The notes beneath the pieces were generated by a model. It was not told the DNA's origin and ran no database searches. It saw nothing but the letters and a program-made list of their open reading frames with translations. Made by a program: the position numbers and the translations under genes. From the NCBI GenBank assembly GCA_019306065.1, contig JAFDMF010000005.1, positions 843 through 64,842 of the forward strand: DNA of 64,000 nucleotides. Direction: 5' to 3'. Below, one piece after another: positions 3,462 through 45,382 of this stretch (the stretch's first letter is position 1; every line of letters begins with the position of its first letter). This stretch comes from Deltaproteobacteria bacterium (lineage in GTDB: Bacteria > Desulfobacterota > Desulfobacteria > Desulfobacterales > JAFDMD01).

Positions 3462-6005
3462 ATGAAAGACAAATTTTTCGACGATAATACACAAAAAGCG
3501 GCTTATTTAAAAGAAGACGCCATCTTACGCATAAGGAACGGAAAAAGAGGTATTGTATTACTTATAGCGTTGAATCATATCTGTCATACTTTAGATTATT
3601 TTGTCTATCCGGATATGTTTCAAACCTTTTTTAAGATGCGCTGTATTTGGTCTTTTTTACTTATGTCGTTGTTTTTTTTATTATCAAAAAAAGATCTTGC
3701 GACAAAATATTATCATATAATCGGTTATATGTGGACTATGTTAATAGCTCTTCCGATATGTATTATGGTTTTTTTAAAAGACGGGTCGGTTTCTCCTTAT
3801 TATGCAGGACTTAATCTTGCTATAGTCGGAGCATGTCAAGTATTGCCTTATAATCACTTTGAAGCTATGAGATACGGTTTGACGATAGCTTTTTTTTATA
3901 CGATAGCCGTTCTTTTTCATGAAGAAACCCCTTTTAATTACAGCGTTTTTTATAATAACCTGCTTTTCATTATGCTAACGGTTATAATTAATGTTTATAT
4001 ATGTTATTTTTTTACGGAGATAAGAATTAAAGAGTTCAAACACAGATATAAACTTGAGGAAATGGATAAACTTAAAACCGAGTTTTATGCTAATATTAAT
4101 CATGAATTGCGAACTCCTTTGACAATGATTATTTCTCCTATAGAAAGAATTTTAAATAATGTGCCGGCTTTGCCGGAAACTGCCCGTAAACTTTTAATAT
4201 TAGCAAGAAATAATGGATTGCGTTTATTAAGTTTGATTAACGACCTTCTTGAAATATTACGGTTAGACGAATTAAAAAAGCAGATCGAATTGGTTCCGAT
4301 CAAAATTTCTTTATTAGTATCCGGAATAGTTAATTCCGTCAAATATATGTTTTCAGAACAGAATCAGCGGATTGATTTTATTAATAATTGCGGGGATACC
4401 GTTATACTGGGGGACATCTCGAGTTTGGAAAAAGTTTTGATAAATATATTAAGCAACGCGGCTAAATTTACGCCGACTGACGGAATGGTTGCCGTGTCTA
4501 TGCACGCGAATGAAGATAACCTTATAATAAAAATATGCGATACGGGAATAGGTATTTCGGAAGAAGAAATGCCTTTTATTTTTGAACGATTCAGGCAGGT
4601 AGATGGCTCGTCAACAAGAAATTATCGCGGAATTGGGTTAGGGCTTGCCATTACAAAAGAATTACTCGAAGAACAGAACGGAAGTATAAAAGTTGCAAGC
4701 CGTAAAGGAATGGGAACCACTTTTACTATTACCCTTCCCTTGTATAAAGGAGATTTGGAACTTTTTGTTTCGTCTTCTTCTAATTATGATATATTTGCAG
4801 ATACTTTTAGGAAGGCGGATTTGGCTAAAATACATATCTGGCATCATATAGAAAGACTGAATTTGGATAAGGAAAGTAGAAAATATAAAATTATGATTAT
4901 TGACGACGAACCGGATATGTGCCAATTTCTTATGTCATTATTTGAAGAAAAGTATATAACCGTTCAATCTCATGACGGGATTAGAGGTATAGAAAAAGCG
5001 TTGGAAGTAATTCCGGACGTAATTATTCTGGATGTAATGCTGCCGGGAATGGACGGCATTAAAATATGCAAAAGTTTGCGGAGTTATCCCGAATTGGAAT
5101 ATACTAAAATTATTCTTTTGACTGCAAGAACATATGAAGGTATAAAGATAAAAGGTTTAAAATCAGGAGCTGACGATTTCCTTACTAAACCTTTCAGCAG
5201 CACCGAAGTCATTACCAGAGTAGAAAACGTACTTAGGACATCAATTCAACAAAAGCAGATAAAAGAAGCTATGAATAAGCTAAAAGAGGTTGAATCTCAG
5301 CTTATCCAGAGCGAGAAACTTAATTCGCTTGGCGTGTTATCTGCCGGGATTATTCACGAAATAAATAATCCTTTAAATTTTATGAGCGGATATGTAGGAG
5401 GTTTAAGAAGAAAAAGAAAAGATTCCGACCCTGAAATAAAAGAGGCTGTAGATAATATTTATAAGGGGATAGAACGCATAACGCGTATTACTTCAAGCCT
5501 TAAAAAGTTTGCTTCCGGCGCAAAACGTTATGAACAACCTTTTTATATAAACGATTCTTTAAGAAGCGCTCTTACGCTTACAAGAGCAAAAATCAAAGAG
5601 ATAAAAATAACCGATCTGCTTAATAGAGAAAAATACAAGGTAATAGGTTTGCCTGATGAAATAGCGCAGGTTTTTATAAATCTGCTTATCAATGCGGCGG
5701 ACGCTTTTAAAAATATAGACAGAACGCCCGAAATAACTATAAGTTCGTTCAAAGAACAGGACAGATTATTTATAAAATTTAAGGATAATGGCTGCGGTAT
5801 AGAAAACTCAAAGCTTTCTCATATCTTTGACCCGTTCTTTACTACAAAAGAAACAGGCGAAGGCATGGGACTCGGTTTGAGTATCTGTTATAAAATTGTT
5901 AAAAATCATGGCGGAAATCTTAATGTAAATAGTAAATTGGACGAATTTACAGACTTTATTTTCGACTTGCCTATAATAGAAGATAAGGAGCAAAATAATG
6001 TATGA
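3462..6005 (+). CDS. Hybrid sensor histidine kinase (membrane sensor, HisKA/HATPase, receiver, then a second HisKA/HATPase)
   Basis: About 200 aa of multi-pass membrane N-terminus. First kinase: H-box HELRTPLT and G-boxes DTGIGI / GIGLGLAI. Receiver: IMIIDDEPD...DVMLPGMDG...LTKPF. Second kinase: H-box HEINNPLN, then DNGCGI and GMGLGLSI. Confidence 0.9.
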   Translation: MKDKFFDDNTQKAAYLKEDAILRIRNGKRGIVLLIALNHICHTLDYFVYPDMFQTFFKMRCIWSFLLMSLFFLLSKKDLATKYYHIIGYMWTMLIALPICIMVFLKDGSVSPYYAGLNLAIVGACQVLPYNHFEAMRYGLTIAFFYTIAVLFHEETPFNYSVFYNNLLFIMLTVIINVYICYFFTEIRIKEFKHRYKLEEMDKLKTEFYANINHELRTPLTMIISPIERILNNVPALPETARKLLILARNNGLRLLSLINDLLEILRLDELKKQIELVPIKISLLVSGIVNSVKYMFSEQNQRIDFINNCGDTVILGDISSLEKVLINILSNAAKFTPTDGMVAVSMHANEDNLIIKICDTGIGISEEEMPFIFERFRQVDGSSTRNYRGIGLGLAITKELLEEQNGSIKVASRKGMGTTFTITLPLYKGDLELFVSSSSNYDIFADTFRKADLAKIHIWHHIERLNLDKESRKYKIMIIDDEPDMCQFLMSLFEEKYITVQSHDGIRGIEKALEVIPDVIILDVMLPGMDGIKICKSLRSYPELEYTKIILLTARTYEGIKIKGLKSGADDFLTKPFSSTEVITRVENVLRTSIQQKQIKEAMNKLKEVESQLIQSEKLNSLGVLSAGIIHEINNPLNFMSGYVGGLRRKRKDSDPEIKEAVDNIYKGIERITRITSSLKKFASGAKRYEQPFYINDSLRSALTLTRAKIKEIKITDLLNREKYKVIGLPDEIAQVFINLLINAADAFKNIDRTPEITISSFKEQDRLFIKFKDNGCGIENSKLSHIFDPFFTTKETGEGMGLGLSICYKIVKNHGGNLNVNSKLDEFTDFIFDLPIIEDKEQNNV

Positions 6006-7155
6006 TTTTAAAAAATATTTGATACTCGTTGTAGATGACGAAGAACGAGCCCTTAATTCTTTCCGATATTCGTTCGGAGATGATTTCAATATTGTATTTG
6101 CAAAAAGCGCCACTGATGCTGAAAAAATATTAAGCGACAGATCTTCGGAAATAAGCGTTATATTAAGCGATCATAAAATGCCTAATGGAATTTCGGGTTT
6201 AGACTTTTTAAAAAAATACGCGATTACTCATCCTGATATTGTAAAAATTCTTACTACCGCTTATTCGAATCATGATCTTGCCATAGATGCCGTTAATTCC
6301 GGAGCTATTTATCAATATATAGTAAAACCATGGGAAATGGAAACCCTTTTTCAAATTCTGTTAAGAGGTTATGAACTTTTCATACTTCATAAAGAGAAAA
6401 AAATTTGGGAAATCGAAAGAATAAATATGCTCGAAAAGCTTATTTTTACGGATCGTCTTAGAAATCTTGCGACATTATCTGAAATTCTTCCTTTAAACAA
6501 CTCTATTTCCGCTTTAAAAAAATTTATAAAAATTCTCCCTCCGAATCTTTTATCAGACAAACAGGATACTATCGAATCTTTAAAAAATCTTATGAATAGC
6601 GCAAAGCAGAGAAACCGCCACTTTTTAGAGATTATAAGAGACATAAAAAAAATCATAGTAAAAGAACAGGATAATTTTATCAATTATTCGCTTGAAAATA
6701 TGCTTCAAGAGGAAAAATCTAAAATTGTAAGCGAAACAGATATTGATATTAAAATCGAAATTGATAAAAAACTTCCGGAGTTAGAAGGCGAAATAAACAT
6801 AATGCGCAGTCTTATAAGAATTCTTTTTAAACATTTGCGCGACGTTAATCAAAAGCCTTTAATAATAACCGCTGATCTGGTATTGATAAATGAAGCTATT
6901 AAAGGGGTGACTCTTTATTTTTCTTATGATTTCATTAAGAAAAAAGAAAAGCTTTGGAATTTGCTTCCGATCTTTTTTGCGATTTATCATCACAGCGGCG
7001 AAATAAATGTTACAAAAACTCAAATCGAAATATTTCTGCCCGTATCTCCTGATAGTATAGTAACGGACGAAACCGAAGATACGGAGCTTTTAAACGGTTT
7101 TTTCGATCAATTTGAAGTTATAAAGCATTATGAGGCATGGCTTTCGGTTATATAG
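5998..7155 (+). CDS. Response regulator: receiver domain fused to a degenerate kinase-like output region
   Basis: REC motifs LILVVDDEERA, LSDHKMPNGISG and VKPW. The start overlaps the kinase stop (ATGTATGA). The C-terminus lacks a phospho-accepting His box. Confidence 0.75.
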   Translation: MYDFKKYLILVVDDEERALNSFRYSFGDDFNIVFAKSATDAEKILSDRSSEISVILSDHKMPNGISGLDFLKKYAITHPDIVKILTTAYSNHDLAIDAVNSGAIYQYIVKPWEMETLFQILLRGYELFILHKEKKIWEIERINMLEKLIFTDRLRNLATLSEILPLNNSISALKKFIKILPPNLLSDKQDTIESLKNLMNSAKQRNRHFLEIIRDIKKIIVKEQDNFINYSLENMLQEEKSKIVSETDIDIKIEIDKKLPELEGEINIMRSLIRILFKHLRDVNQKPLIITADLVLINEAIKGVTLYFSYDFIKKKEKLWNLLPIFFAIYHHSGEINVTKTQIEIFLPVSPDSIVTDETEDTELLNGFFDQFEVIKHYEAWLSVI

Positions 7156-11090: not shown

Positions 11091-11110
11091 AAATTTCGGC
11101 GGATAACAAA

Positions 11111-11136
11111 TAGAGACGTTGCATGCAACGTCTCTA
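11111..11136. repeat. PAL28 palindrome copy (26-bp perfect core TAGAGACGTTGCATGCAACGTCTCTA)
   Basis: Perfect palindrome centred on GCATGC, 20 nt after the stop of the XRE-cupin gene. Confidence 0.9.
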
Positions 11137-11171
11137 CCGTTAATCGGATAAATTAAAGTTTAGACAATTAT

Positions 11172-12545: not shown

Positions 12546-13676
12546 ATGTTAAATTCTCTGATAATTCGTAATTTCCGTATATTTAAAGAATTAAAAATAA
12601 ACAGGGTAAACAGGGTAAATCTATTTGTAGGCAAAAACAATTCCGGTAAAAGCTGCCTGCTTGAAGCCTTGCAAATATACGCTTCCAAAGGAAATCGCGC
12701 TGATTTATATAAGATAGTTTTATCAAGAGATGAAAATTGGGAAAGTTTGCTTGCTCGCAAACGTAAAGATTCGATCCGAAAAATTTCCGCGCTGTTAGGT
12801 TATCTTTTTAACGGATATGTTTTGCCGGATATTAACGGAAAAGCTATAGAAATAGGACCAGGCAATAGCGAAGCCGATCTTCTTAAAATACGCCATAGAG
12901 CCTTTCATATAACCGAAGATGAAGAAGGAAGAAGAATTCGAACTCCGGTAGAGCAAGAATCCACAGAAGATGATTTTATAGATATTCAAACCGCATTGGA
13001 GGTTACGCAGGGAGAAAAGAGGCTTTATTATATTCCATTAGAATATAATAGATATATTTCTTCTATGAGGAGAATAGTAGAATTTAATAATACCAATTTT
13101 CAAGTGGCGCCTGCGCGGCAGATCAACGATTCAGATATCTCGGCTTTATGGGATAATATAAACTGAACCGATTTGGCACAGGAGATAGTTTCCGCTTTAA
13201 AAATTATTGATCCTAATATATCGGCGGTCGCTCTTATTGGAGATATTTCCAACGATAGATTCAGCAGTGGAAAAAACAAACGAATTCCTATTATCCGTTA
13301 TAAAGGCATAAAAGAAAGAATACCTTTAAAAACAATGGGAGACGGTTTGCTCCGTCTTTTTCATGTTATTTTGGCTCTTGTAAATGCGAAAGACGGACTT
13401 TTATTAATAGATGAATTTGAAAACGGACTCTATTGGGCGCTTCATCCGAAATTATGGGATATTATATTAAGATTATCTCATCAATTAAATGTTCAGGTTA
13501 TAGCTACCACTCATAGCCGAGACTGTATAAAAGGCTTTTATGAAGTTTGGAAAAATAAAAAAGAGGACGCCTCTTTTTACAGGTTAGAAGCAGACGCCGA
13601 AACCGGAGCAAAAGTTATTAATTACACGTATGATATGCTTTCTGATGCAATTGAAACCGATATTGAGGTTCGATAA
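12546..13676 (+). pseudogene. AAA/ABC-type ATPase (AAA_21 / COG1106-like) interrupted by one in-frame TGA
   Basis: ORFs 12546-13166 and 13173-13676 share one frame and are separated only by TGA at 13164-13166 (WDNIN*TDLAQE). Walker A is GKNNSGKS in the first part; Walker B LLLIDEFENGL and H-loop ATTHS are in the second. Confidence 0.8.
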
Positions 13677-13743: not shown

Positions 13744-15129
13744 ATGATACGCGAACATTGCGGAATATTTGGCATTGCGGAAAATCCGAATGCCGCAAAT
13801 AATACATATCTCGGATTATACGCTCTTCAGCACAGAGGCGAAGAAAGCGCCGGAATTGCTGTCGCGCATAATGGCGAAATAAAATTATATAAAGGATTAG
13901 GGCTTGTAGCAGACGTTTTTAACATAAAAAAAACGGATAAAATATCCGGCGCAAGCGCAATAGGACATGTTCGATATTCTACCGCAGGAAACACAACCCT
14001 TTCAAACGCCCAACCGATTATAGCTCATTACAAAAATCAAACATTTGCCATAGCCCATAACGGCAATATAGTAAATGCCCATATATTAAAAAAACAGCTT
14101 ATAAGGCAAGGAATTAAGTTTGAAACAACATCGGATAGCGAAGTTTTTTTAAAACTTCTTATAAAAAATTTAAAATACGGTTTTGAAGAGGCGGTAAAAA
14201 AAAGCGCGGAAATCATAAAAGGGGCTTTTTCGATAATAATACTTACAAACAAAGGAGAAATAGCGGCAATAAAGGATCCTAACGGCTTTAGACCTCTTTG
14301 TTTGGGAAAAATAGAAAAAAATTATATTCTTGCCTCCGAAACCTGCGCATTAGATATAAACGGCGCCGAATTTATAAAAGAACTTGATCCAGGCGAAATA
14401 GTTATTATCCGTAATGATAAAATAAAAAGCATAAAAAATAAAAAAGATAAAAGAAGCTTTTGTATATTTGAATATATATATTTTGCCAGACCGGACAGCA
14501 TAATGTTCAATAAAACCGTTTATAAAGTCCGAAAAAATTTTGGTAAAAAACTTGCTGCAGAATCTTCTGCAAAAGCCGATATGGTTATTCCTTTACCGGA
14601 TTCCGGAAATTATGCCGCATTAGGTTATTCTCAAGCAACAGGCATACCTTTTGAACTCGGCATAATTAAAAATCAATACATAGGCAGAACCTTTATACAG
14701 CCGGAGCAGATAATCCGAGAAATCGGAGTAAAAATAAAATTAAATCCCGTTAAAGAAATATTAAAAAACAAAAATATAGTAATAGTTGACGATTCTATTG
14801 TTCGAGGTTCTACTATAAAGATGATAGCAAAAATTTTAAGAAAAACCGGCATTCAAAAAATTCATTTAAAGATAGCAAGCCCCGCTCATAAATATCCATG
14901 CCCTTACGGAATAGATTTTTCGGATAAAAAGGAACTTTTTGCCGCAGATAAAACCGTTGAAGAGATGAAGGATATTTTTAAAGTCGATTCGCTTTCTTAT
15001 CTAAGTATTTCGGGGTTATTGGAAGCTACGGGTATAAGGAAGCCGGAAATTTTTTTTTGCAAGGCATGTTTTGACGGCGTATATCCGGTAGATTTCGATA
15101 TTAATGCAGATAAAAACTTTTGCGTTTAA
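13744..15129 (+). CDS. purF: Amidophosphoribosyltransferase
   Basis: 461 aa. Nucleophile context MIREHCGIFGI, RGEESAGIA, the PRPP-binding loop VIVDDSIVRGST and C-terminal Cys ligands. Confidence 0.95.
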   Translation: MIREHCGIFGIAENPNAANNTYLGLYALQHRGEESAGIAVAHNGEIKLYKGLGLVADVFNIKKTDKISGASAIGHVRYSTAGNTTLSNAQPIIAHYKNQTFAIAHNGNIVNAHILKKQLIRQGIKFETTSDSEVFLKLLIKNLKYGFEEAVKKSAEIIKGAFSIIILTNKGEIAAIKDPNGFRPLCLGKIEKNYILASETCALDINGAEFIKELDPGEIVIIRNDKIKSIKNKKDKRSFCIFEYIYFARPDSIMFNKTVYKVRKNFGKKLAAESSAKADMVIPLPDSGNYAALGYSQATGIPFELGIIKNQYIGRTFIQPEQIIREIGVKIKLNPVKEILKNKNIVIVDDSIVRGSTIKMIAKILRKTGIQKIHLKIASPAHKYPCPYGIDFSDKKELFAADKTVEEMKDIFKVDSLSYLSISGLLEATGIRKPEIFFCKACFDGVYPVDFDINADKNFCV

Positions 15130-15268
15130 ATTGCCCGAATTATGATTTGTCTGATTAAAGGAGCGTATATATATTGGAATATGTAAAAGGCGGTAGATAG
15201 GTTGCAATGCAATAATATTAGGTTTATAATCAACCAATTTTAAAAAACATTTGAAAGGATGGGGCGCA

Positions 15269-16675
15269 ATGCAAGGAAAATTGACTCGTTTTCGTATAGA
15301 AGGATTGCATAATATCCGCACTATAGATATGTCGATTACTGATAATAAATTGGTATTGGTTGGAGAAAACGGCATAGGGAAAAGCACGGTAGCCAATTTT
15401 ATTTATTTTTTCTTAACTATGCAATGGTCAAGAATGCTTGATTATAAATTTAAAAGCGTTTCGGCGGAGATAGACTCAATAAATTATAATTTAAGCAGAG
15501 ACGACGTAAATAAGCTTGCGAGAAAACAAAATTTTATTAATGAAAGATATGGACGTCGCTTGCCTATATCAATATATAACAAAGTTAAAGAATTAGTTGA
15601 AAGAAAATATAATGATAATAAGATAATGGGGCTAATTTCGGACGAATTCGGCGTTCCTCGCACCATATTAAGACGAGAGATTGAAAATATAAGATTTAGC
15701 AACTCGATTTCCAAAGAATTAAAAAAAGATATAGAATCGGTCAAAACTAAAATAGGAAATAAGGTAATATATCTTCCTACTTATAGAAGAATTGAACAGG
15801 ATTTGGAGATTATTTTGCCGAAATTAGAGATAGGAATAAGAGATTTTGAAGAATACCCAAAAAGGCGTAAAAATACGGGATATACCGAGCTGGTGGAATT
15901 CGGGATGGAAGATGTTGAAGAGACTATACATCGTAAAATGATAGAGATAAAAGAGACAATACGAAAAGATTTGAGCGCGTTAACAGGGGATTATCTTAGA
16001 GATGTTATTAAGGGGGCTTATCAATCTATAGATATTGCTAAATTTAACGAGGTTAACGAATTCTTAATTGCAGATATATTCAAAAGAATCCCGGAAGATA
16101 TTCTACCGCAAGAGGATCAGGAACTTTTAAATAAAATTATTTCCGAAATAAATGAATCAAAAACAATTAACGACAATAATAAAGTTATAGCTCACTTTCT
16201 TACGAAATTGGCAAAGCTCTATCAAAAGCAACAAAATGATGAGCGCGATATACGAGAATTCATAGAAATTTGTAATAAAGGGTATTTGTCCGACAAACGT
16301 TTTATATATGATGATCAGAATTTTAATATTGTAATTCGAGATATTCTTATAAAATCAGGCGTTTTGGAACTGCCTCTTAAAGCGTTATCTTCAGGCGAAA
16401 AGCAGATTGTATCTTTATTTTCTCATCTTTATTTATCTGGCAAATCCGGCTTTTTTCTTATTATTGACGAGCCGGAATTATCGCTTTCCGTGCCTTGGCA
16501 GAAACAATTTTTACCGGATATTCTAAAAAGATGTAACGGATTAATAGCGGTTACTCACTCGCCGTTTATTTATGATAATGAATTGCGACCTTATGCGCAT
16601 TCGTTGGAAGAGTTTATTAAACCTTACGAATATGACCCTGATTTAGAAGAATGGGATGAAACTGCTATAATTTAG
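15269..16675 (+). CDS. ABC/SMC-like P-loop ATPase with a long helical insert (COG3950-like, defence-type)
   Basis: Walker A VGENGIGKST, C-terminal signature LSSGEKQ, Walker B FFLIIDEPELSLS and H-loop AVTHSP. I prefer ATG 15269 (AAAGGA 9 nt upstream) over TTG 15251. Confidence 0.8.
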   Translation: MQGKLTRFRIEGLHNIRTIDMSITDNKLVLVGENGIGKSTVANFIYFFLTMQWSRMLDYKFKSVSAEIDSINYNLSRDDVNKLARKQNFINERYGRRLPISIYNKVKELVERKYNDNKIMGLISDEFGVPRTILRREIENIRFSNSISKELKKDIESVKTKIGNKVIYLPTYRRIEQDLEIILPKLEIGIRDFEEYPKRRKNTGYTELVEFGMEDVEETIHRKMIEIKETIRKDLSALTGDYLRDVIKGAYQSIDIAKFNEVNEFLIADIFKRIPEDILPQEDQELLNKIISEINESKTINDNNKVIAHFLTKLAKLYQKQQNDERDIREFIEICNKGYLSDKRFIYDDQNFNIVIRDILIKSGVLELPLKALSSGEKQIVSLFSHLYLSGKSGFFLIIDEPELSLSVPWQKQFLPDILKRCNGLIAVTHSPFIYDNELRPYAHSLEEFIKPYEYDPDLEEWDETAII

Positions 16676-16686
16676 GAGGCGTTTTT

Positions 16687-17235
16687 ATGTCATATATAAA
16701 TACTCTAAACAGAGCGGCTAAAAGTCCCACAACCGATTTTCATCTTTTAATAACTCAACATCCGTTCCAACGGAATAAATATTATGATTTTTTTACAGAT
16801 GAGGCTGTTTCGGATATTCTTTTAAAAATGGAGCGGCTTGACGATCAGAATTCAAACCTTGAAAAAAAATATACGAATAATTGGGAAAAATCTGTTAGCA
16901 TACTCCCCGAAGAAGAGATGGATCATAAACAATGGAGTGAAAATAATTATTTATGGTCAAAATATCATGAAGATTATTATAAAAAGTTAGAGAAAGTTAA
17001 GCTTACCCTTGTAGATAATGTGGGAATATCGGGAACAAAAAAGTTGGCAATGGAACAAGAGCCTATTGAACAAGAGTTTGTTAAGGAAAATTCGGCTGAT
17101 AAACCTTCTGAAAAAAACGGAATAAATTTTCTTATGTCAATAGCGGGAATGTTTGATTCCGGCGATAAAAATGGCTCGAAAAATATTAAATCCGTCGTAT
17201 CTGAATCCATCTTAAAAAAGTATGGAAAAAAATAA
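16687..17235 (+). CDS. Hypothetical 182-aa protein; possible adaptor or antitoxin for the downstream PIN
   Basis: AGGAGG precedes the ATG. The stop lies 2 nt before the PIN start. I recognise no domain motif, and the C-terminal tail is acidic then basic. Confidence 0.5.
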   Translation: MSYINTLNRAAKSPTTDFHLLITQHPFQRNKYYDFFTDEAVSDILLKMERLDDQNSNLEKKYTNNWEKSVSILPEEEMDHKQWSENNYLWSKYHEDYYKKLEKVKLTLVDNVGISGTKKLAMEQEPIEQEFVKENSADKPSEKNGINFLMSIAGMFDSGDKNGSKNIKSVVSESILKKYGKK

Positions 17236-17237
17236 AA

Positions 17238-17657
17238 ATGGCTTTTATAATTGATACCGGATTCCTATATGCCGCGCTTGATAAAAAAGATAAAAATCAT
17301 AAAAATGTTATCAAATTATTACCGATTTTGCCGAAAAGCGATTTAATACTGCCTACTCTTGTATTGGTAGAAATTACGTATCTTTTACAAAAAAGATTAG
17401 GGCATAAAAAAATGCGACAATTTATATCTACGCTTGACAACTCCCCTATCAAATTTGAAAATATTACTCAAGACGATATTCATAGAATATATGAACTGTT
17501 AAATCAATATTCGAATATAAAATTGGATTTTGTAGATGCATCTATTACGGCTATAGCGGAACGTTTGAATATCAAACAAATTTTAACGGTAGATAAAAGG
17601 GATTTCAATATAATTTGTCCTATCCACTGCAAGCATTTTGAAATACTTCCGCAATAA
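17238..17657 (+). CDS. vapC: PIN-domain ribonuclease (VapC-like toxin)
   Basis: 139 aa. N-terminal FIIDTGFLYA (first acidic residue), EITYLL and LDFVDASITAIAE are typical of PIN. Confidence 0.85.
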   Translation: MAFIIDTGFLYAALDKKDKNHKNVIKLLPILPKSDLILPTLVLVEITYLLQKRLGHKKMRQFISTLDNSPIKFENITQDDIHRIYELLNQYSNIKLDFVDASITAIAERLNIKQILTVDKRDFNIICPIHCKHFEILPQ

Positions 17658-17734
17658 AAAATTTCTATTAAGCAAATTATTTTTGAATATCTTCAAAAAT
17701 CCATTCTCTTACTTCATTATAACCGGAGAAAAAA

Positions 17735-18730
17735 ATGAAAAAAACAGTATCATTTTCAAAAAAGGCTTCTAATATATTTTTTCATATATTAACAGACTGC
17801 AATCTTAAATGCGCTCATTGTTATATAAATAAAAAGGAACACGGTCAAGGAAAATTACCCGTAGAAACAATAAAATTATGGCTTAGTGTTTTTGCAAAAA
17901 GAAATCCAAAAAAAAAGAATCTTATATTTTTGGGAGGAGAACCCACCTTACATCCCGACCTTTCCGAAGCAGTAAAAGAGGCAAAAAGATTAAATTACGA
18001 ATCCATAACCGTAGATACAAACGGTTATCTTTTTTTTGATATACTTTCAAAAGTAACGCCGGAACAGGTAGATTATTTCAGTTTCAGCATAGACGGCTCA
18101 AATACGAAATTAAACGATAAAATAAGAGGCAAAGGCTCTTATGAAAAGGTTATCGAAGGCATAAAAAAAGCAAAGGCAAAAGGTTTTAAAACAAGTATGA
18201 TATATACGGTATCTTCTTATAATATAGAAGATATTAAAAATATGCCTGATATTTTAAAAGATATAATGCCGGATAAATTTTTTATTCAAATCATAGGAAT
18301 AAGAGGCAAACCCGCGGCAAGCGCGAATAACTTTCAGGTAAATAACAGTCAATGGTTTTGCGCTATTCCGAATACCGCAAAAAAGATAGCAGAACTCGGA
18401 ATAAGCGTAATATATCCGAAAGTATATCTTAAAAAAGAGGAGCCTTTTGAATGCGCCGGATTATTGGCGGATAATTATTTTATATTTCCTAACGGAAGGG
18501 TTTACAAATGCCCTTTATGCGAAGACTTTGCTATAAACGGACTTTATTTTAATAAAAACAACAAGCTGGTAAAAAACGGTAAAATAAACGAAGACGACCT
18601 TTTTAATCTGTCAATACCGGAAGGCTGCGTAATCAATAAGATCGTTCAGTCGGATAATATAGAGTATAATAAAGACGGCAAGCCATTATATAAAATTGCG
18701 TGTTGTATGCTAAAGGAAGAAATATCATAG
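17735..18730 (+). CDS. Radical SAM protein with a Cys-rich (SPASM-like) C-terminus
   Basis: CNLKCAHCY is the CxxxCxxC cluster motif. GGEPTL is present. C-terminal Cys residues occur in YKCPLCED and IACCM. Confidence 0.85.
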   Translation: MKKTVSFSKKASNIFFHILTDCNLKCAHCYINKKEHGQGKLPVETIKLWLSVFAKRNPKKKNLIFLGGEPTLHPDLSEAVKEAKRLNYESITVDTNGYLFFDILSKVTPEQVDYFSFSIDGSNTKLNDKIRGKGSYEKVIEGIKKAKAKGFKTSMIYTVSSYNIEDIKNMPDILKDIMPDKFFIQIIGIRGKPAASANNFQVNNSQWFCAIPNTAKKIAELGISVIYPKVYLKKEEPFECAGLLADNYFIFPNGRVYKCPLCEDFAINGLYFNKNNKLVKNGKINEDDLFNLSIPEGCVINKIVQSDNIEYNKDGKPLYKIACCMLKEEIS

Positions 18731-40451: not shown

Positions 40452-40479
40452 GTAGAGACGTTGCATGCAACGTCTCTAC
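40452..40479. repeat. PAL28 palindrome, perfect 28-bp copy GTAGAGACGTTGCATGCAACGTCTCTAC
   Basis: Perfect palindrome read directly from the sequence. It sits between the MNT and HEPN genes. Confidence 0.95.
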
Positions 40480-45354: not shown

Positions 45355-45382
45355 GTAGAGACGTTGCATGCAACGTCTCTAC
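45355..45382. repeat. PAL28 palindrome, perfect 28-bp copy
   Basis: GTAGAGACGTTGCATGCAACGTCTCTAC, 51 nt after the stop of the FN3 gene. Confidence 0.95.

Follow-up and report, generated by a model that had tools for sequence, protein, structure and literature searches.

An AriA-like ATPase, an adaptor of dual ancestry and a VapC-type PIN RNase: a likely PARIS-derived three-gene toxin module

Introduction

How immune sensors acquire their effectors is an open question, and PARIS-type systems are the current model for the sensing of phage counter-defence proteins. In PARIS, the ATPase AriA is paired with AriB, a DUF4435/TOPRIM nuclease (E. coli B185; PDB 8UX9 and 8V45-8V49). Here, we describe an ATPase of this kind that stands in front of a toxin of another family in a genome of the Desulfobacterales (Deltaproteobacteria bacterium, assembly GCA_019306065.1). 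The window, by which we mean the whole stretch of 64,000 nucleotides (nt) that was analysed (contig JAFDMF010000005.1, positions 843 to 64,842 of the forward strand), carries next to purF three tightly packed genes on the same strand. This triad encodes an ABC ATPase, a protein of 182 amino acids (aa; gene 2) and a PIN RNase (gene 3). A sequence-only reading had proposed that the three genes are co-transcribed and form an uncharacterised ATPase-led module, either for defence or as a tripartite toxin-antitoxin system, with gene 2 as adaptor or antitoxin. The recurrence of the triad and the lack of a named system that fits it support this proposal. We think it likely, well short of certain, that the triad is a PARIS-derived module of three components in which a sensor gates a VapBC-type toxin.

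Results

The first gene of the triad resembles ariA. Its product matched AAA_21 (6e-15) and AAA_15 (1e-11) in Pfam and the AriA model PDLC04164 in PADLOC (5e-22), and its best match by sequence in the PDB was AriA (8UX9/8V45, 4e-11), with which it is collinear (468 vs 464 aa). The ATPase was modelled with AlphaFold2 (AF2; mean predicted local distance difference test score, pLDDT, 83; predicted template modelling score 0.78) and the model was compared with the PDB by Foldseek. The top 15 matches were all AriA chains (best E 8e-13, mostly 1e-12 to 1e-10, the 15th 1.4e-08), with template modelling scores, normalised to the target, of 0.56-0.67 (0.67 for the best match), and the next best was the retron PtuA at 1e-8. 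Judged by sequence and predicted fold, the ATPase is AriA-like and AriA is its closest solved relative. The split ABC layout that the sequence-only reading had described was found: Walker A, signature, Walker B and H-loop are all present, with about 330 aa between Walker A and the signature, and most core residues are invariant among 58 homologues, including G32, E33, N34, G35, G37, K38, S39 and T40 of Walker A as well as W410 and Q411, which follow the Walker B/D-loop region. This region aligns with the segment of E. coli AriA that bears the AriB-contacting residues D401 and E404.

We then looked at what stands next to the homologues of this ATPase, which form a large family (more than 4,000 matches). 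Of 80 genome loci whose ATPase homologue is 35-46% identical, 64 have an open reading frame (ORF) of 300-350 aa 3' of the ATPase gene, with a gap of -56 to +27 nt, and all six partners sampled matched DUF4435 or the AriB model of PADLOC (2e-16 to 8e-27). Because all sampled partners did so, the parent family is a pair of an ATPase and a DUF4435 protein, which is the operational definition of PARIS. A homologue at 52% identity (L093) also has a DUF4435 partner, and relatives at or below 52% identity are almost always followed by an AriB-type DUF4435 nuclease of about 320 aa. Contrarily, every homologue examined at or above 54% identity (L085, L086, L088, L089, L091, L092/L006 and L101) was followed by a small protein of 87-194 aa matching no Pfam family and by a PIN protein of 138-147 aa. 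The same arrangement was seen in the two closest sister genomes (L001 and L003), so that the co-occurrence on which the sequence-only reading had staked its claim is borne out.

Altogether, the triad recurs in at least eight distinct, unrelated genomic contexts. The flanking genes differ from locus to locus: DeoR and GFO_IDH genes, PPDK, leucyl/valyl-tRNA synthetase, argininosuccinate synthase, or an iHKD gene and a recombinase. In seven of eight orthologous triads, from contexts that have no other genes in common, the gap between the ATPase gene and gene 2 is 9-13 nt. For L085 it is 11 nt once the start of gene 2 is corrected to 3567; there, the public call of the adaptor gene starts late, at 3630, and leaves out the segment 3567-3629 with the conserved start MSYLDTL. 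Such a late call is one reason why word-based searches under-count the adaptor family. L001 and L003 have the same purF-triad-radical SAM synteny as the window, and this order is kept in three related Desulfobacterales metagenome-assembled genomes (MAGs). The small accessory pocket in which the triad had been placed by the sequence-only reading is therefore only partly an apt description. Among 87 ATPases placed in a neighbour-joining tree, the nine from triads group together as a single clade within the DUF4435-paired ATPases, in 487 of 500 bootstraps (97%). The triad is a recurrent module with a single origin from an ATPase + DUF4435 ancestor.

In a Desulfomonilaceae MAG whose ATPase is sister to the triad clade (L014), the partner ORF (6446-7150) is a short DUF4435 protein of 234 aa. 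It reads HAFFESDED where its relatives read FVEGxxD, and it has no in-frame N-terminal anchor of the type described below. This partner, beside the ATPase closest to the triad clade, may be degenerating or transitional.

Gene 2 is the component that distinguishes the triad, and it matched nothing in Pfam, PADLOC or NCBIfam; by the same three collections, it has no DNA-binding domain of the ribbon-helix-helix, AbrB, Phd/YefM or helix-turn-helix (HTH) type. Its family is rare: 5.8 billion proteins yielded 12 clusters (about 12 at 90% identity), and clustering at 50% identity leaves roughly 25-30 that bear the anchor. When 1.84 billion representatives were searched exhaustively with the profile, 105 relatives were obtained, of which about 20 span the whole profile, 28 start with M[ST][YH][LIV] and many match by the tail only. 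Among orthologues, both the N-terminus (MSYLxTLxRAxxSPxxDxHLxxL) and the C-terminus (FLxSIAGMFDSGxxDTSxNxKSxVxxxILKKYGK) are conserved, and the middle varies.

The N-terminus of gene 2 was compared with that of the DUF4435 partners, with 26 of the 28 proteins that start with M[ST][YH][LIV] used as anchor-bearing members for the N-terminal profile. In hhalign, gene 2 matched the N-terminal profile of the DUF4435 partners with a probability of 97.4% (P = 1.1e-11), columns 1-40 aligning to columns 1-40, while the controls gave 0.032 for the rest of the partner and 0.15 for a reversed profile. In reciprocal searches with hidden Markov models among 10,887 six-frame ORF pieces, gene 2 and the DUF4435 N-termini ranked adjacent to each other and above some 10,800 other pieces, always at the N-terminus. 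The consensus of the partners over this segment is MxxLDxLxxAxxxxxxxYHxFLxxYxxxxxxxYxFVEG, and the alignment ends at the position of the first TOPRIM glutamate (FVEG), where gene 2 reads FFxx and the catalytic glutamate is lost. The pattern MSYLxTLxRAxxSPxxDxH is kept in the 26 members, including forms of 87-89 aa that contain little else but the tail. In E. coli PARIS, residues 1-53 of AriB lie over the ATP sites of AriA, and disruption of this interface abolishes defence (PMC11464382). The earlier statement that gene 2 has no motif that can be placed holds for the domain collections and fails for this N-terminal segment.

The C-terminal tail of gene 2 leads to another family of proteins. About 70 short proteins matched only the last 45 or so positions of gene 2, at their own C-termini, with E values from 1e-16 to 1e-4. 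Their N-termini belong to RelB (2e-11), PhdYeFM (4e-8), HTH_17 (3e-16) and DUF2281 (5e-6). We examined nine neighbourhoods of such tail-only genes, and in seven of them a PIN gene of the same subfamily as gene 3 lies directly downstream; five of these PIN proteins are full-length and 50-59% identical to gene 3, and the other two are contig-end fragments whose N-termini closely match it. In the two remaining, short contigs (L099 and L103), no PIN gene was detected downstream, and no ATPase gene was found beside the tail-only antitoxin/PIN pairs that were examined. In one case (L097), the PIN of a classical two-gene toxin-antitoxin pair of the Phd type is 51% identical to gene 3 (5e-53). At this locus (176-1214), the PIN gene is preceded by two Phd/YefM antitoxin genes in tandem, of which only the second has the conserved tail. 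A search of metagenome loci with the tail alignment confirmed eight loci. When the tail-only profile was compared with the PDB and Pfam, no match was obtained, and a resemblance to the C-terminus of VapB26 was not confirmed. Comparison of the sequences provides strong evidence that the tail of gene 2 is homologous to the ends of antitoxins of the RelB, Phd, HTH and DUF2281 types standing beside the same PIN subfamily, at their C-termini. The guess of the sequence-only reading that this is a toxin-wrapping antitoxin tail thus gains backing from the homology to bona fide antitoxin tails.

A triad with a divergent tail was also observed. In L089 (6449-7140), the adaptor is only 89 aa long and has an altered tail (SITGMFASGTPDPWEEL...), and the PIN protein is 25% identical to that of the window with the acidic quartet retained. 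In this locus, the PIN seems to have changed along with the tail.

Between anchor and tail, the middle of gene 2 is a variable helical hairpin insert, absent from the 87-89-aa forms of L089 and L092, followed by a linker predicted to be disordered. In the AF2 model, the N-terminal part forms a helical bundle and hairpin of mostly good confidence, and the insert helices span residues 39-65 and 74-116. The mean pLDDT of 10-residue blocks is 63-95 over residues 1-110, with its minimum at the turn around residues 61-80, and after the linker come two helices of low confidence, as would be expected of a tail that folds on its partner. The structure prediction and Foldseek search that had been recommended for the 182-aa protein gave no significant fold match in the PDB: the best E value was 0.37, for generic helical hairpins such as the dimerisation domain of ING4. 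Coiled-coil matches of the full gene 2 profile in the PDB (CFAP91 at 0.0024) were discarded as low-complexity similarity of the variable insert.

We also considered that gene 2 and gene 3 together (182 + 139 = 321 aa) might be a split version of the DUF4435 partner of about 320 aa. This idea was rejected because of the 51% identity of the PIN to that of a classical toxin-antitoxin pair; in addition, phmmer comparison of genes 2 and 3 with 64 DUF4435 partners gave an N-terminal signal only. From its sequence, gene 2 has a clear dual ancestry and is a chimera of an AriB/DUF4435-derived N-terminus and a VapB-type antitoxin tail. Another fusion was met in a metagenomic protein of 179 aa (P0187), in which about 100 N-terminal residues of a triad-type ATPase are joined directly to a VapB-type tail. 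Its Walker A motif is ruined (GENGVRRRT), and it apparently arose from a triad by deletion.

The third gene encodes a PIN protein, as had been proposed. It matched the PIN family of Pfam (2e-15), its best matches in the PDB were VapC26 (2e-9) and VapC20 (8e-4) of M. tuberculosis, and no PADLOC model matched it at an E value of 0.1 or better. The acidic quartet D6/E45/D100/D119 is invariant in the nine triad PIN proteins. Gene 3 encodes a VapC-type PIN RNase with an intact D-E-D-D site and is predicted to be the cognate toxin.

To look at selection, the ratios of nonsynonymous to synonymous substitution (dN/dS) were calculated against the two sister genomes. The ATPase had ratios of 0.22-0.26, the PIN 0.24-0.30 and gene 2 as a whole 0.47-0.51. 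Taken by segment, gene 2 gave 0.25-0.34 in the anchor, 0.25-0.42 in the tail and 0.53-0.58 in the insert. All three genes are under purifying selection, and the anchor and the tail are the most constrained parts of gene 2.

Some neighbourhoods of the triad add to the plausibility of a role in defence. A second ATPase system (AAA_15 + DUF3226) stands beside the triad in two unrelated lineages, a few kb upstream (L089, 1135-2873; L003, 3307-5069); the triad ATPases of these lineages are only 56% identical, and an AbiEii gene is also found near the triad of L089. In L091, the recombinase that adjoins the triad together with the iHKD gene is a serine recombinase. The AAA_15 + DUF3226 neighbours give hints of defence-island-like clustering. 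In the window itself, a second AAA_15/AAA_21 ATPase gene lies on the other side of purF (12546-13676, + strand). It is AbiLi-like and matches PADLOC PDC-M38A (3e-36 and 3e-51). Its 375 codons are interrupted by a single stop in frame, codon 207 (13164-13166), and the C-terminal part of 167 aa (13173-13676) is 86% identical to the intact orthologue of 375 aa in L003. The gene for a DUF3226 protein of 211 aa that follows the L003 orthologue is absent in the window, where 67 nt lie between 13676 and purF. The remains resemble those of a defence pair that has decayed.

The layout of the triad is as the sequence-only reading had given it, with 11 nt between the ATPase gene and gene 2, an AGGAGG before gene 2, and 2 nt between genes 2 and 3 at a TAA-AA-ATG junction (Table 1). 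The mechanical ORF of the ATPase starts at TTG 15251; since the homologues open with MxxxLTRFRIEGLH, the start was placed at the ATG at 15269. A scan of 15000-17900 revealed no terminator-like sites. In this AT-rich region, 23 promoter-like matches were counted vs 15.2 +/- 4.2 in shuffles, which is not clearly above chance. The degenerate copy of PAL28 that had been noticed upstream of the triad is indeed present as a left half-site; chance alone would give about 0.16 matches of this quality across the whole window. PAL28 is a real family of 28-nt palindromes (GTAGAGACGTTGCATGCAACGTCTCTAC), perfect or near-perfect, with four full copies in the window, and could be an element resembling repetitive extragenic palindromes (REP-like) or an operator.

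Table 1. Coordinates of the triad and of associated sites in the window
Feature	Position	Strand	Basis or remark
AriA-like ABC ATPase, predicted sensor and scaffold, 468 aa	15269..16675	+	ATG start, TAG stop
Walker A GENGIGKST, residues 32-40	15362..15388	+	Sequence
ABC signature LSSGEKQ, residues 373-379	16385..16405	+	7/7 residues invariant (58 homologues)
Walker B and D-loop region FFLIIDEPELSLS, residues 395-407	16451..16489	+	
H-loop THSP, residues 429-432	16553..16564	+	
Ribosome-binding site AGGAGG of gene 2, overlapping the ATPase stop codon	16674..16679	+	Sequence
Gene 2, chimeric protein, putative adaptor/antitoxin, 182 aa	16687..17235	+	
Adaptor residues 1-40, AriB/DUF4435-derived anchor MSYINTLNRAAKSPTTDFHLLITQHPFQRNKYYDFFTDEA, predicted ATPase-docking segment	16687..16806	+	hhalign
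Adaptor residues 41-112, variable helical hairpin insert	16807..17022	+	AF2
Adaptor residues 113-142, predicted disordered linker	17023..17112	+	AF2 pLDDT <50 at 113-143
Adaptor residues 143-182, VapB-type tail FLMSIAGMFDSGDKNGSKNIKSVVSESILKKYGKK, predicted PIN neutraliser	17113..17232	+	
Gene 3, VapC-like PIN RNase, predicted toxin/effector, 139 aa	17238..17657	+	
Promoter-like site TTGCAA-17-TATAAT, 39 nt 5' of the ATPase start	15202..15230	+	10/12 positions match; weak evidence
PAL28 degenerate left half-site GTAGATAGGTTGCA	15193..15206	+	2 mismatches
PAL28 full copies	1137-1164, 11110-11137, 40452-40479, 45355-45382		None expected by chance

Discussion

We propose that the triad works as follows. 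By analogy with PARIS, where an AriA hexamer sequesters the effector and frees it in a trigger- and ATP-dependent way, the ATPase would be an infection sensor and a scaffold whose oligomer, at rest, holds the adaptor by its AriB-derived anchor, and the VapB-derived tail of the adaptor would occlude the PIN RNase. A phage-derived trigger would bind the ATPase, and an ATP-dependent rearrangement would let the adaptor go. Off its scaffold, the adaptor would be lost, probably by proteolysis via the disordered linker and the tail, and the freed PIN would cut rRNA or tRNA and cause translation arrest and thereby abortive infection. The adaptor can be pictured as a natural plug adapter that joins the effector docking peptide of the sensor to an antitoxin tail, by which a PARIS-type sensor would have captured and gated a free-standing VapBC. 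This last idea is offered tentatively, as one that may hold but could quite as readily fail.

PARIS is the known system to which the triad comes nearest. Both have an AriA-type ATPase of similar length, the wider ATPase family of the triad pairs with DUF4435 proteins, and the adaptor keeps the N-terminal segment of the usual partner, the part of AriB that contacts AriA. In both, the ATPase likely sequesters an RNase that targets translation until it is triggered. However, neither gene 2 nor gene 3 matched DUF4435, the FVEG motif is gone, and the triad has three genes instead of two, with a separate PIN effector that would be held through an antitoxin-type tail. By membership the triad is not PARIS, since the DUF4435 effector is absent. 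The claim that the module is uncharacterised and stands apart from PARIS is thus right in that no named system matches it, and needs amending in that it derives from PARIS-type ATPase + DUF4435 pairs. The analysis of PARIS evolution in the PARIS paper reports that ariA and ariB co-evolve, with swaps being rare, and lists no PIN-linked form.

The triad shares with type II VapBC systems (of which VapBC26 and VapC20 of M. tuberculosis are the closest solved) a PIN protein with the acidic quartet, an upstream gene ending in an antitoxin-type tail, and tight coupling of the two genes. It differs in that the DNA-binding and dimerisation domain of the antitoxin is replaced by the AriB-type anchor, with a helical hairpin in the long forms, and in that an ABC ATPase is the obligatory upstream neighbour. 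For these two reasons the triad is not a canonical VapBC, and the lack of a DNA-binding domain makes transcriptional autoregulation by gene 2 unlikely. Toxin-antitoxin-chaperone (TAC) systems are also made of three genes, and an extra segment of the antitoxin ties it to the third protein. In TAC, a SecB-like chaperone takes this third place and the antitoxin is extended at its C-terminus by an aggregation-prone segment, whereas in the triad the third protein is an ABC ATPase and the tie would be an N-terminal anchor of nuclease origin. Hub D29 of NetFlax has the same class of ATPase with interchangeable toxins: in the sections of that report considered here (PMC10440598), the ATPase acts as the 'antitoxin' of TOPRIM_OLD, RloB, HNH, HEPN and mRNA-interferase-like AarT toxins and neutralises them in toxicity assays. 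Each of these pairs has two genes, with direct binding of the toxin by the ATPase, and the same sections mention neither a PIN partner nor a bridging adaptor. In the literature on AriA, AriB or DUF4435 with PIN, VapC or VapB, the triad was not found to be described, the ABC ATPase classification of Krishnan et al. (2020) being outside this search. No named system fits the triad, and PADLOC has no model that matches gene 2 or the PIN. The triad is a rare, evolutionarily coherent variant of ATPase-gated toxin systems.

Other explanations have to be weighed against a sensor-gated module. That a lone ATPase gene came to lie by chance beside an ordinary VapBC is a thought suggested by the abundance and mobility of VapBC pairs and by the failure of gene 2 to match Pfam, PADLOC or NCBIfam. 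It is refuted by the recurrence of the gene order in at least eight contexts and by the monophyly of the ATPases (97% bootstrap), and the middle protein has a segment homologous to the normal partner of the ATPase family; we give it next to no credence. Equally slight is the chance that the triad belongs to HEC-03, a pair of an ABC ATPase and a VapC-like PIN protein that is antiphage and needs both genes (Payne et al., bioRxiv 10.1101/2024.01.29.577857). The two domain classes and the general logic are the same, so the sequence-only claim that no known ATPase-led system uses a PIN together with an adaptor stands for that combination and falls for the pairing of ATPase and PIN. However, HEC-03 has two genes and no adaptor, the triad PIN has no PADLOC match at an E value of 0.1 or better and hence none to HEC-03B, and the ATPase matches AriA models best, its top 25 in PADLOC being AriA, mad3, PtuA, HEC-01A, AbiLi, PD-T4-4_A and GajA, with HEC-03A absent. 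Moreover, the authors of HEC-03 stress that its ATPase is unrelated to VapB (bioRxiv 10.1101/2024.01.29.577857), while a VapB-derived tail is explicitly present in the triad. More serious is the idea of a decaying PARIS-like locus, in which a VapBC was inserted into, or recombined with, ariB, so that the AriB N-terminus is a fossil, the ATPase an orphan and only the VapBC functional. The loss of the catalytic FVEG motif from the adaptor would fit, as would the P0187 fusion and the neighbouring ATPase gene with its in-frame stop and missing DUF3226 partner. But the anchor is conserved in 26 members, even in those reduced to 87-89 aa, and has the lowest dN/dS within gene 2. The triad ATPases keep all catalytic residues under a dN/dS of 0.22-0.26 and stay adjacent to gene 2, 9-13 nt away in seven of eight triads, across otherwise unrelated contexts. 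We hold decay to be improbable.

The triad could also be a tripartite toxin-antitoxin module for addiction or stress, in which the ATPase, like the SecB-type chaperones of TAC systems, would be a chaperone or stabiliser of a dependent adaptor-antitoxin and the PIN would be activated by stress or by gene loss, not by phage sensing. Its core is clearly derived from VapBC, and AriA has been described as antitoxin and chaperone for AriB (PMC10802264). Several observations that favour this explanation count at the same time against a role in defence: many triads have housekeeping genes as neighbours (in the window purF and radical SAM, in other loci tRNA synthetase, argininosuccinate synthase and PPDK), the triad of the window is vertically conserved in three related MAGs with a stable synteny that is as compatible with a chromosomal toxin-antitoxin module as with defence, and tblastn with the adaptor in phage and plasmid collections gave no match. 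Against a toxin-antitoxin module, the characterised members of the ATPase family (PARIS) are phage sensors, a different ABC-ATPase + PIN pair was shown to defend, and fully conserved ATP-hydrolysis motifs fit an active switch better than a passive chaperone. We regard this explanation as unlikely, though it deserves more weight than decay; the two readings are not mutually exclusive, PARIS being both. Further points also weigh against the sensor-gated module that we favour. The DUF4435 partners, used as single sequence and as profile, did not retrieve E. coli AriB from the PDB, so that the mapping of the anchor to residues 1-53 of AriB relies on where the motif sits, immediately ahead of the first TOPRIM glutamate, and not on direct alignment. 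The salt-bridge residues D401 and E404 of E. coli AriA align to P409 and K412 here, and the E. coli interface residues are not conserved in the triad. The adaptor family is rare and the comparative sample accordingly small. The binding of the anchor to the ATPase and of the tail to the PIN is predicted from homology. Finally, release of the adaptor-PIN complex would not by itself unmask the PIN, and the degradation step is a conjecture.

If the picture of a plug adapter is correct, the triad would be the first documented case in which an ABC-ATPase immune sensor exchanged its effector through a bridging antitoxin and not through direct co-evolved contact, and sensor and effector could be re-paired by swapping short peptides. 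The triad records a sensor-effector swap in which a predicted docking segment of about 40 residues was kept, the nuclease was dropped, and an antitoxin tail was added together with its own toxin. It offers testable predictions, bearing on two short peptides, two interfaces and one RNase, and may provide a design rule for the engineering of chimeric sensor-effector systems. Triad loci will escape annotation tools for which AriB is a requirement. The triad would link classical type II toxin-antitoxin modules mechanistically to ATPase-gated abortive infection.

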